Shown in pieces: positions 18,120 through 32,804 of a stretch of DNA of 64,000 nucleotides. Made by a program: the position numbers and the translations under genes. The stretch's first letter is position 1. Each line of letters opens with the position of its first letter. The notes under the pieces were generated by a model, which worked only from the letters and a program-made list of their open reading frames with translations, was not told where the DNA came from and searched no databases. The stretch lies in IMG/VR virus record IMGVR_UViG_640753059_000001. One strand, given 5' to 3'. This DNA is from a virus (lineage: Duplodnaviria; Caudoviricetes).

Positions 18120-19541
18120 TCAGCTCCTCACTTCAGGTTTCATGAAATCCTTCGTCGAGAGACCGGCAATCCACGCCTGACCTTCGAGCGCTGACGTGAT
18201 GGTGGGTGGAACCCCGATGGCGAACTCTCGCCCTGTCCCGCAGCGGACCCTCACGAAGCGGGCTTCTCCAACATCAGGAAGCTTCACTTCTACGAGCGTT
18301 CCGATTTCCGGGTCCCCGTCTTCGTCGATTGTTTTTGCGTCAAGATCCTGGAGCATCTTCGCCCAGCCGATGATTTCGACGCCGGCCTGGCGCTGCTCCA
18401 TATTTTCATGCCGGAGGATATCTGCCGGGCCCACAGAGCCCTTGTCTTCGATCCATTGGGCCGGGATCCTTGTCCCGTGCCATGCATGGCATCCCCAGCC
18501 ATCTGAATACCTTACCGCTGGCCCCGTTTCACAATGCAGGCGCCGCTCTCCGTCGAAGTGCACTTCGCGAGGGCGGTCACTCACGAAGCAGATCCCGTCC
18601 CAAGGAGCCCACCACCCGACGCTTTTCGAAAGTCGAGCCCATTCGAGCAGCAGGGCGATATTCTCGGGCTCATACCGAACCCCGATTTCATGCCCGAACA
18701 GATAGAACGCCTCCCATGCACACCAATGTTGGGATCCCCAACGATTGGTGAGAAAATAGGATCGTAGGCCGTCGAGCTGGCTGTCGAGCTGGCTGCGGAG
18801 CTGGCTGTAGAGCTGGCTGTCGAGCTGGCTGCCGAGCTGGCTGTAGAGCTGGCTGCCGAGCTGGCTGCGGAGCTGGCTGCGGAGCTGGCCGCCGAGCTGG
18901 CTGTAGAGCTGGCTGTCGAGCTGGCTGCCGAGCTGGCTGTAGAGCTGGCTGCCGAGCTGGCTGCCGAGCTGGCTGCCGAGCTGGCTGTAGAGCTGGCTGC
19001 CGAGCTGGCTGCCGAGCTGGCTGCCGAGCTGGCTGCGGAGCTGGCCGTCGAGCTGGCTGTAGAGCTGGCTGCCGAGCTGGCTGTAGAGCTGGCTGCCGAG
19101 CTGGCTGCCGAGCTGGCTGCCGAGCTGGCTGCGGAGCTGGCCGTCGAGCTGGCTGTAGAGCTGGCTGCCGAGCTGGCTGTAGAGCTGGCTGCCGAGCTGG
19201 CTGCGGAGCTGGCTGCGGAGCTGGCCGCCGAGCTGGCTGTAGAGCTGGCTGCCGAGCTGGCTGCGGAGCTGGCTGCCGAGCTGGCTGCCGAGCTGGCTGC
19301 CGAGCTGGCTGTCCTTGAGCATCAGAAAGACGAAGTTCACGGCCAGCTCGCACATCGCCGGAGATGAAAAGTGCAGGATCATAGGGGCCGGCTTGCCCAG
19401 CCGCTTGTAGAAACCCCTGATAACCTCATCCCCAGTCTCGAAATCAGCCGGGTCACAACAGAGGCCGACTTGCCGCCACTCTTCCCGGAACTCCTCCAGC
19501 CTGCGTTCCCGCGCGGCGGTGAGCTTGTTGATCTTCGCCAT
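18120..19541 (-). CDS. DUF6745-like protein with an internal (xSQL)45 repeat
   Basis: C-terminus GWWAPW..ICFVSDRP..RLHCETGPAVRYSDGW..AWHG; central tetrapeptide array. Confidence 0.8.
   Translation of the reverse strand: MAKINKLTAARERRLEEFREEWRQVGLCCDPADFETGDEVIRGFYKRLGKPAPMILHFSSPAMCELAVNFVFLMLKDSQLGSQLGSQLGSQLRSQLGSQLYSQLGGQLRSQLRSQLGSQLYSQLGSQLYSQLDGQLRSQLGSQLGSQLGSQLYSQLGSQLYSQLDGQLRSQLGSQLGSQLGSQLYSQLGSQLGSQLGSQLYSQLGSQLDSQLYSQLGGQLRSQLRSQLGSQLYSQLGSQLDSQLYSQLRSQLDSQLDGLRSYFLTNRWGSQHWCAWEAFYLFGHEIGVRYEPENIALLLEWARLSKSVGWWAPWDGICFVSDRPREVHFDGERRLHCETGPAVRYSDGWGCHAWHGTRIPAQWIEDKGSVGPADILRHENMEQRQAGVEIIGWAKMLQDLDAKTIDEDGDPEIGTLVEVKLPDVGEARFVRVRCGTGREFAIGVPPTITSALEGQAWIAGLSTKDFMKPEVRS
18774..19313. 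repeat. 45 tandem 12-bp units (GAGCTGGCTGNN on + strand)
   Basis: 540 bp; unit count taken from the translation. Confidence 0.95.
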
Positions 19542-30585: not shown

Positions 30586-31242
30586 ATGGCAGGGCGTAAG
30601 CGTAAGGCAGGGCGGCGGACGGCGGACGGTCGGTTAGCGAAGAAGCCGCGCCCGCAGCGCGTCAGGGACATCACCGACGTGGCAACCAGCCAGCCGCACC
30701 GCAGCTGGCTCAAGGAAGGCCAGCGCCGCGATCAGCGCGCCGAGAGCACCCTTGGCAGGATGTTCCTCGCCGACCTGATCACGGAGCCCGAGTGCTGGGC
30801 GGGTGAGCGGCTCCGCTCCATCATCCGGGAATTCCATGTCGTGATCGCCGCACCGATCACAGCGTCAACGGCGGCAATCATGGTCGCCGAGGGGATGGAG
30901 ATCCCGGCCGAGGCCGACCACCTGGCGGCGGAGCGCCCGGAAACCGAGGAAGAGAAACGGGATCGGGTTCTCGCGCAGCACGCTGGCGCCATGGCGGTCC
31001 TCGATCGGCTCGAATGGGGGCGGCAAATCACCAGTGAACTGGACGCCCTGCTTATGCGGGACGCCGAGCCCGAGCACCTCCGCCTGGTGAAGGCGGGCCT
31101 GCACGCCCTCGCCGCCTTCTGGCGCATGGCCGAGCCTCCGGAAAACCCCAACGATCGCGAGGTCAAGGTGAAGGGGGTCCGCTATGGCGAGGAGGCCGAA
31201 TGGCCTCACGAAGAGAAGGTGGTGAGCATCGTCTATAAGTAA
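30586..31242 (+). CDS. Putative late-gene regulator (DUF6456-like)
   Basis: MAGRKRK.G.R..GRL N-terminus, LG.M..I...AG, L..GL.ALA.FW; last gene before packaging. Confidence 0.6.
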   Translation: MAGRKRKAGRRTADGRLAKKPRPQRVRDITDVATSQPHRSWLKEGQRRDQRAESTLGRMFLADLITEPECWAGERLRSIIREFHVVIAAPITASTAAIMVAEGMEIPAEADHLAAERPETEEEKRDRVLAQHAGAMAVLDRLEWGRQITSELDALLMRDAEPEHLRLVKAGLHALAAFWRMAEPPENPNDREVKVKGVRYGEEAEWPHEEKVVSIVYK

Positions 31243-31335
31243 AATTTCGGCTCCCTGCGCCATAGGCGCAAATCAGCCATGGTGTGCCCGAAATGCAGGG
31301 TGAAGTGTTGCGCCCTGATTTGGCATAGCAGTTTA

Positions 31336-32150
31336 CGGCTCCGGCCCCTTCGGGCAAGTCGTTCCAAGTCCTACCGGCCGGATACGTCGGACTTGGTAGA
31401 AGCGGGGATCGGTCACAAACGCGTAGCTTGCCGGGGGCGAACAGAAGCCCCGTAGAAATTCCCGGCACCCATTCGCGCTTCGGCGCGCAACCAGGTGCGG
31501 ACCGACCAGCAGGCCTCCGGGCGCAAAGGCGGCGAGCACGGCGCTAAAGGCAAGCATCTGGCCCGCGCCGGCTGAGAGGCCGGCAACTGTGATCCCTGAG
31601 CGAAAGCTCGTGTTGAAGCAAGGCGCGCGATAGTGCCGAGTGGAGCGGGTGAGTAGGTGGCGCGGCACGGCCCCGCGATGGACCGCCGGGAAGCTACGGC
31701 GACAGGGTGAGGACGGCGCAAGCCGGTGGCCCAGGCCTTTGCCTCTCCCAAGTTTCGCGCTTCGGCGCGCACGAGTTCGACGCGGCAGCTTGTTGCTGTG
31801 AAGGTTGGGGCGGCCCGGCCGTCCCGCGTCGATCAGCTTCGAGAGGGCAAGCCAGCTCGCGCCTTGTGTGCCCCGGTAGGAAACGGCTTCCGTTCGAAGG
31901 GGAAAGCAACGATTGCCCAGCGGTGCGTAGGCGTTCGGCAAGCCGGCGCTTTGGCATTCGCTCTAGGGACCGCACAACGCGGGGATGGCGCCCCGCCCGC
32001 AGGGCGGCTGGGGTCGCGCCCGGCCTCTCACGAAAGCAACTCTCCGCCACGGCAGGCTTGAAGTCCGTGGCACGTCCACTGCCGCGGGGCTAGCCTCCGG
32101 GGCCCGTGTTCATCATCCGCCCGCCCGGTTCTGCCGAGGCGGGTTTTTCA
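31336..32150 (+). ncRNA. Candidate large structured RNA or RNA array
   Basis: No credible ORF; multiple UUCG/GNRA-capped stems, a duplicated 18-mer hairpin and a terminator at the end. Confidence 0.6.
32120..32150 (+). terminator. Intrinsic terminator upstream of terS
   Basis: CCCGCC...GGCGGG followed by TTTTT. Confidence 0.7.
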
Positions 32151-32186
32151 TTGGGCGAGTGAGCCCTTATTGAGGCGGGCTCAGGC

Positions 32187-32804
32187 GTGACCGAGAAGCG
32201 AAAGACGGATTGGGAGGCGATCGAGCGCGAATACCGCGCGGGCCAGCATTCCATCCGCGAAATTGCCAAGAAACACGGCGTCAGCGATACCGCCATTCGC
32301 AAGGAGGCCAAGGCCAAGGGCTGGGAACGGGCCCTTGCCGATCAGGTCCGCAAGGCAGTTCGCGAGAAGCTGGTTCGCAGTGATGGTTCGCAGTCAGGTT
32401 CGCACCCTCAACGTGCGAACGACCGGGAGATCATCGAAGGGGCTTCGCTCCTCGGTTTCGAGGTCGTCCAGTCGCACCGGCGCGATATCTCGCAGCTCAC
32501 CGCCATCTCCAACATCCTCGCCACGAGGCTCGCAGCGGTCCTGAACAGCGACCCTGTGGAAGGCCGTTGCCTTGGTGACAAGGAAAGCCCCGGCGACCTT
32601 CTGGAGAAGCTGACGCGGGTTCGTGCGCGGCTGATCCCCCTGGAGCGGCAGGCCTACAACCTTGACGCCGAGGAGCGCGACCCCAGCGACCCTGATAGCC
32701 ATGACGGTTCCGCAATCGACCTTCTCGCTCGCCGCCTCGATCGCATCGCTTCCCGTAGCGGAGAGGGCCCGGGTTCTGGCGGGACTGACGAAGAAGCAGG
32801 CTGA
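32187..32804 (+). CDS. terS: Terminase small subunit
   Basis: DWEAIEREYRAG..SIREIAKKHGVSDTAIRK HTH; upstream of terL. Confidence 0.8.
   Translation: MTEKRKTDWEAIEREYRAGQHSIREIAKKHGVSDTAIRKEAKAKGWERALADQVRKAVREKLVRSDGSQSGSHPQRANDREIIEGASLLGFEVVQSHRRDISQLTAISNILATRLAAVLNSDPVEGRCLGDKESPGDLLEKLTRVRARLIPLERQAYNLDAEERDPSDPDSHDGSAIDLLARRLDRIASRSGEGPGSGGTDEEAG

Follow-up and report, generated by a model that had tools for sequence, protein, structure and literature searches.

A probable late-operon leader in a Xanthobacter prophage filled with exchangeable non-coding RNA modules

Directly before the terminase genes of a Xanthobacter prophage lies a gene-free gap of about 940 bases, which raises the question of what, if anything, this DNA encodes. 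The gap comprises positions 31243-32186 of the window, i.e. the whole stretch of 64,000 nucleotides that was analyzed. The host genome of the window has a size of 5.6 Mb and a G+C content of 67.5%, and homologous prophage genes are found in relatives named as Xanthobacter and Azorhizobium. An earlier sequence-only reading interpreted the gap as a structured non-coding RNA of about 800 nt or, alternatively, as an RNA array divided by a repeated hairpin.

The gap and the elements that frame it

On the 5' side, the gap is preceded by a replication-initiation gene (DUF1376 / phrog_9474), three small genes and a 218-aa open reading frame (orf218), and on the 3' side it is followed by terS (phrog_1206), terL (Terminase_6N/6C) and the portal gene. 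The elements that delimit the gap are the following:

30586..31242, plus strand: orf218, 218 aa, with an Arg/Lys-rich N-terminus; 24 homologues, all unnamed; last gene before the packaging module
31255..31315, plus strand: promoter-like block and the putative first transcribed bases, from the alignment of 8 loci plus 4 more
32119..32150, plus strand: intrinsic terminator, with homologues in 8 relatives, where they serve as predicted terminators of the leader
32187..32804, plus strand: gene of the terminase small subunit, the first late gene (phrog_1206, E = 3e-41)

The gap is non-coding, because GC content by codon phase is flat over 31300-32150 (maximum minus minimum not above 0.16, compared with 0.3-0.48 in the flanking genes, both of which display the strong third-position bias typical of this genome), because none of its eight ORFs has a match in Pfam or PHROGs, and because comparison of the window with a relative of 77% identity reveals indels of 1, 2, 4 and 7 nt. 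The claim that the region contains no credible ORF is thus borne out, and a conserved coding signal in one frame, searched for by the same three criteria, is absent. The region also lacks matches among known RNA families. Comparison with Rfam 15 yields no match in the region at gathering scores, and at E <= 10 only weak, sub-threshold matches appear: the terminator hairpin is hit by an sRNA model, the opposite strand by two snoRNA models, and a riboswitch is matched as a fragment. ARAGORN identifies no tRNA or tmRNA in the window, and the tRNA model RF00005 of Rfam likewise finds none; the ARAGORN tRNA matches obtained at lowered thresholds were discarded as spurious. The earlier failure to match the region to a known family is borne out with both Rfam and ARAGORN.

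The homologues of orf218 are 55-95% identical and are always encoded last before the packaging modules, which belong to quite different terminase families. The protein has no Pfam, PHROG or PDB-fold match, and its AlphaFold model has a pLDDT of 74. The label of a late regulator, which the sequence-only reading had attached to this gene, accordingly reflects position only, and orf218 is described here as a conserved unannotated family that is, by position only, a candidate late-gene regulator or antiterminator.

In all 12 loci examined, the stop codon of orf218 is directly followed by the promoter-like block. It comprises a -35-like hexamer that includes TTGC, a dyad (31256-31270), an 8-mer (31268-75) that does not vary, a -10-like hexamer near 31278-83 and, from 31290 onward, an invariant block. 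About where transcription would start, there is an 8-mer. The invariant segments persist even though the protein encoded upstream is only 55-74% identical. In 5 of 8 loci, changes in the dyad are compensated so that its symmetry is retained, with three different versions among the loci, which suggests a candidate binding site co-evolving with its protein. A simple sigma-70 scan finds no promoter, so that the promoter is called here from conservation alone.

In 9 of 11 relatives, an intrinsic terminator with a covarying stem is located about 50 nt after the promoter block. In the window, this canonical position is empty, and the hairpin at 32119-32150, which consists of a GC-rich stem followed by a U run and covaries among relatives, aligns with the terminators of the relatives, in agreement with the earlier claim that a terminator closes the region. 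Given the empty canonical position and the homology of the distant terminator, an insertion of about 800 nt of cargo appears to separate the start of the leader from its terminator. The whole is probably one transcription unit that extends from a late promoter to the terminator. Transcription would start near 31290 and end at about 32150, yielding a primary RNA of about 860 nt; continuation into terS would then depend on a factor, perhaps orf218.

A mosaic of modules that are interleaved with tRNA genes in relatives

Homology searches covering the own genome, 60 relatives and viral contigs matched different pieces of the gap in different places, with recurrent break points at about 31472, 31588, 31785, 31834 and 32054. 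The following modules were delineated:

31316..31471, plus strand: module A1, non-coding, with a hairpin at 31364-31396 inside; shared only with one Xanthobacter prophage (L004/L104)
31472..31489, plus strand: UUCG hairpin, copy 1, an exact 18-mer; the corresponding element of L006 begins 2 nt beyond the CCA of tRNA-Pro
31490..31587, plus strand: module A2, ending in the hairpin 31567-31584; located after a tRNA and the hairpin in L006 and before tRNA-Gly in L007
31600..31785, plus strand: module B, a closed unit of about 190 nt; 4 full copies and 1 partial copy
31754..31771, plus strand: UUCG hairpin, copy 2, an exact 18-mer within module B
31777..31832, plus strand: S stem-loop with a conserved closing helix of 9-10 bp; found in 12 loci after the hairpin, with inner pairs that covary
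31837..32036, plus strand: module C, a closed unit of about 200 nt with the closing helix 31838-46/32026-34; 4 copies
32037..32118, plus strand: 3' spacer with a hairpin at 32046-32071; the site at which L005 and L039 carry tRNA-Thr

The region is a mosaic of modules that are found separately in sister prophages, where they are interleaved with tRNA genes. Module B is present without C in L002 and L031, and C without B in L006 and L039. L002 is a second phage-like locus of the same genome, 31 kb upstream, in which B (96% identity) adjoins tRNA-Trp, and L031 is a viral contig. In the relatives, genes for tRNA-Pro, -Gly, -Thr, -Met and -Trp are located between the same pieces: tRNA-Pro directly 5' of the hairpin and A2 in L006, tRNA-Gly directly 3' of A2 in L007, tRNA-Thr directly 3' of C in L005 and L039, and tRNA-Met within a truncated B in L009, with arrays of two to four tRNAs in L075 and L088. 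A search of the phage GenBank collection returned no match to the region, and of two metagenome pattern scans, one found nothing and the other a single chance match inside a coding region.

Several further elements of these loci were recorded in passing. In L031 (1920-2395, minus strand), an ORF of the HNH/AP2 homing-endonuclease-like type, recognized by reading the sequence without a family search, is inserted in the corresponding leader, with the S stem on one side and tRNA-Thr on the other. In L002 (1385-1480, about 31.4 kb before the start of the window), there is a circularly permuted tRNA-like element with a perfect T-arm, a GNRA-capped acceptor-like stem, a canonical D-arm and an outer closing stem, which lies directly 5' of a variant of the hairpin, of module B in its second copy and of tRNA-Trp; its architecture resembles that of the tRNA-like domain found in bacterial Y RNAs (YrlA). 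The segment 31532-31583 is weakly similar to chromosomal sites, which was dismissed as a chance match inside a conserved ORF. The region was also considered as a mimic of a CRISPR repeat with anti-CRISPR activity; this idea was dropped because no CRISPR array emerged when the own genome was crudely scanned for repeats. A crude repeat scan revealed six copies of a 20-mer at 18784-19252 of the window, spaced by about 50-90 nt, probably within a repetitive coding segment.

The 18-mer hairpin is, as originally reported, present in two exact copies, at 31472-89 and 31754-71. The 5.6-Mb genome contains no further exact copy, and a copy with 2 mismatches is found in a sister locus. Among relatives, the stem is invariant and the loop reads UUCG, UACG, CUCG or UCCG; the hairpin is often preceded by a U-rich AGUUU segment, and the S stem usually comes next. 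Pattern scans for the hairpin that were extended to the genomes of the family and to viral contigs returned mostly chance matches with non-YNCG loops and were set aside. In L006, L039, L075, L088 and L096, a distance of 0-10 nt separates the start of the hairpin from the CCA of a tRNA and, because of this location directly 3' of tRNA CCA ends in relatives, the YNCG hairpin looks like the punctuation of a polycistronic RNA. The more specific proposal of CCA-ended units did not survive the comparison: the letters that precede the hairpins in the window are not tRNA ends, and the CCCA noted there is replaced by CCAA, CCCGA or CCGAT in relatives.

Structure of the modules and competing explanations

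The explanation that we consider somewhat more probable than all others taken together is that the gap is the leader of the late (packaging) operon, filled with about 800 nt of exchangeable, hairpin-punctuated non-coding RNA modules, of which B and C are most likely stand-alone structured RNAs. The cargo would be a chain of independently exchangeable modules, namely A1, hairpin, A2, B, S and C; the YNCG hairpin would separate the units, most likely as a signal for processing or end protection, and B and C would be released from the precursor as structured RNAs of about 190-200 nt.

Comparative support for RNA structure is modest in B, C and the S stem. In the RNAalifold prediction, module B is closed by a 9-bp helix (31605-13 with 31769-77), a second helix pairs 31615-19 with 31752-56, and copy 2 of the UUCG hairpin forms the third arm of a three-way junction. 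The core of B (31640-31735) is nearly invariant among copies, and 97% of cells pair across the 4 full copies and 1 partial copy. The closing helix of module C comprises 9-10 bp. Covariation, which for both modules is read from 4-5 closely related sequences, the same from which the structures were derived, amounts to 2 pairs changed on both sides in B (score reached by 34 of 500 shuffles) and to 4 such pairs in C, two of them in one helix (12 of 500 shuffles reach the pair count, and 3 of 500 the covariation score). In B, variable columns make up 14 of 104 paired and 44 of 99 unpaired columns, a difference exaggerated by one insertion and by how the structure was derived, and one hairpin is replaced by a longer one. 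The CGGC-GCAA-GCCG hairpin of the sequence-only reading is retained, with loop GCAA, GAAA or GCGA, all of the GNRA type, over a constant stem. The helix 31777-85/31824-32, also predicted there, is kept with compensatory changes in relatives: in this S stem, the 7 outermost base pairs never vary, covariation is seen in the inner pairs, and the length of the interior lies between 38 and 152 nt. The longest interior, of 152 nt, belongs to L109 (4255-4470; the same as L013), in which the hairpin and the S stem are located 3' of the leader terminator rather than before it; the insertion point of the cargo therefore varies. Closure of module A2 by the helix 31491-98/31554-61 was considered and rejected, this helix not being kept in L006. 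Rfam contains no family that matches module B or module C. Among sequencing runs, no RNA run was listed as containing the stretch. Three short contigs (152-375 nt), found among the contigs of four runs and stemming from runs whose RNA nature is only guessed, carry module B with other flanks, which shows that B occurs in other contexts and says nothing on expression.

The strongest of the competing explanations, which we nevertheless regard as unlikely, is that the modules are functionless remains of a decaying tRNA island, i.e. spacers, trailers and recombination scars, and owe their conservation to recent divergence or exchange. Such decay is consistent with the lack of an intact tRNA in the window and with the results of folding, in which minimum free energies of the whole region and of each part were compared with those of dinucleotide shuffles. 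Stability above such controls had been named beforehand as one of the properties on which the earlier claim could fail, and none was detected in the whole region (z = -0.19; +0.42 for the opposite strand) or in the single parts and modules (z = -0.33 to +0.65). Decay would also fit the fact that most of the pairs predicted in B and C never vary, as well as the identities of the modules (77-96%), which are similar to those of the neighboring genes and could reflect recent lateral exchange rather than selection, and the rarity of B and C, a covariance model of B, run against 32 genomes of the genus, having detected no additional copy. However, variation prefers loops and unpaired columns, the GNRA and YNCG identity of the loops is kept while the letters change, S, C and one of the hairpins of B show compensatory changes, and the helices abut with almost no spacer. 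The core of B (about 96 nt) is, moreover, 100% identical to that of L031, whereas the flanking genes are only 69-82% identical.

Less probable still is an action of these elements in cis or on DNA, in which an antitermination signal of the nut or put kind would reside in the hairpin, in the S stem or in the leader block, or in which the hairpin palindromes would serve as sites of protein binding or recombination for cassette exchange. The presence of two identical hairpins in a single phage is reminiscent of paired nut sites, terS is preceded by a terminator, and the invariant sequence of the hairpin stem would fit recognition by a protein; furthermore, the 5' edge of the hairpin is the exact insertion point of cassettes, namely the B core (L011/L122 compared with L031) and tRNA-Met (L009 and L012). 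Yet the hairpin is absent from most loci that contain orf218, the retained YNCG tetraloop signature points to RNA, and no recombinase or N-like gene is linked to the hairpin.

Among the long-range pairings that the sequence-only reading had proposed, the one between 31619 and 31866 has 4 of its 9 pairs broken in L005, its two partners being found apart in other phages, and the one between 31523 and 31742 is without a conserved partner. The GAGC-GAAA-GCTC hairpin is likewise broken in L005 and competes with the better-supported closing helix. Because tRNA genes and breaks separate the modules in relatives, the helices proposed between modules cannot be essential. The proposal of a single structure of about 800 nt with crossing long-range helices is therefore unsupported, the pairings failing in relatives and the modules occurring apart, and its alternative, an RNA array that the repeated hairpin divides into blocks, agrees with the mosaic, module-by-module homology. 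The roles suggested in the sequence-only reading, namely antiterminator, packaging RNA or defense decoy, are conjectural. One large RNA of the GOLLD or ROOL kind, with a single global fold of about 800 nt and, in relatives, tRNAs nested in variable linkers, can be considered very improbable, since for all that the prophage and tRNA-island context is that of GOLLD and ROOL (bioRxiv 10.1101/2024.12.08.627333; PMC5737381), the units are dense in helices and the terminator is single, no GOLLD or ROOL model matches even at E <= 10, the inter-module pairings are broken or partnerless in relatives, and B and C are each found without the other.

A further step from the leader with exchangeable modules is taken here only tentatively. 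Modules B and C, and perhaps the S family, may represent new families of structured RNAs associated with phage tRNA islands, which would be cut at the YNCG hairpins from a late-leader transcript that ends at its own terminator. Such RNAs could be made whenever the late promoter fires and could act in trans, for example, on the host machinery for tRNA processing or on tRNA-targeting defense systems.

Comparison with known systems

Four known systems invite comparison. The put element of phage HK022 is likewise a structured RNA just 3' of a phage promoter and 5' of terminators; it is set beside the region by description only, and it differs in being an RNA of about 65-70 nt with two stem-loops that acts directly on RNA polymerase. 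The tRNA cluster of phage T4 is presumably comparable as a polycistronic unit in which tRNAs and two stable non-tRNA RNAs (species 1 and 2) are co-transcribed and processed. In contrast to that cluster, the window contains no tRNA, and the likeness is one of layout, not of sequence.

The late leader of lambdoid phages is organized as Q, pR' and a terminator (PMC6266700), and in Stx phages this zone carries non-essential cargo, tRNA genes included (PMC7946995). With this leader (Q, pR' with qut, terminator and a short '6S' RNA, with cargo such as stx and tRNAs), the region shares the succession of a gene, a promoter block, a short conserved block that would be transcribed, a terminator and the late genes, and a promoter-like block and a predicted intrinsic terminator appear between the upstream gene and the late genes in 12 loci. 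The differences are that orf218 has no similarity to lambdoid Q (Pfam, PHROG and PDB fold; model pLDDT 74) and that the cargo here is located 5' of the terminator, inside the putative leader transcript. Together with the conserved promoter and terminator unit, orf218 looks like a new late-gene switch in prophages of the Xanthobacter and Azorhizobium type.

GOLLD and ROOL are encoded by prophages, often near tRNA islands, and tRNAs are sometimes found in the linker of GOLLD (bioRxiv 10.1101/2024.12.08.627333; PMC5737381). Like these RNAs (RF01998 and RF03087), the region is non-coding, dense in helices, encoded by a prophage or phage and next to or interleaved with tRNA islands, the relatives carrying tRNAs between the same modules. 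Unlike GOLLD and ROOL, each of which has one conserved fold of 580-800 nt, it consists of separable modules of about 100-200 nt, is known only from a few Xanthobacter-type prophages and matches neither model at the gathering score or at E <= 10. The region thus appears to be a previously undescribed form of non-coding RNA cargo of phage tRNA islands, with B, C and S matching no Rfam family. The locus would represent a small modular counterpart of the tRNA-island RNAs GOLLD and ROOL in a cultivable alphaproteobacterium, in which the units of about 190 nt, the punctuation hairpin and the promoter-to-terminator frame make tests of expression, processing and deletion straightforward.
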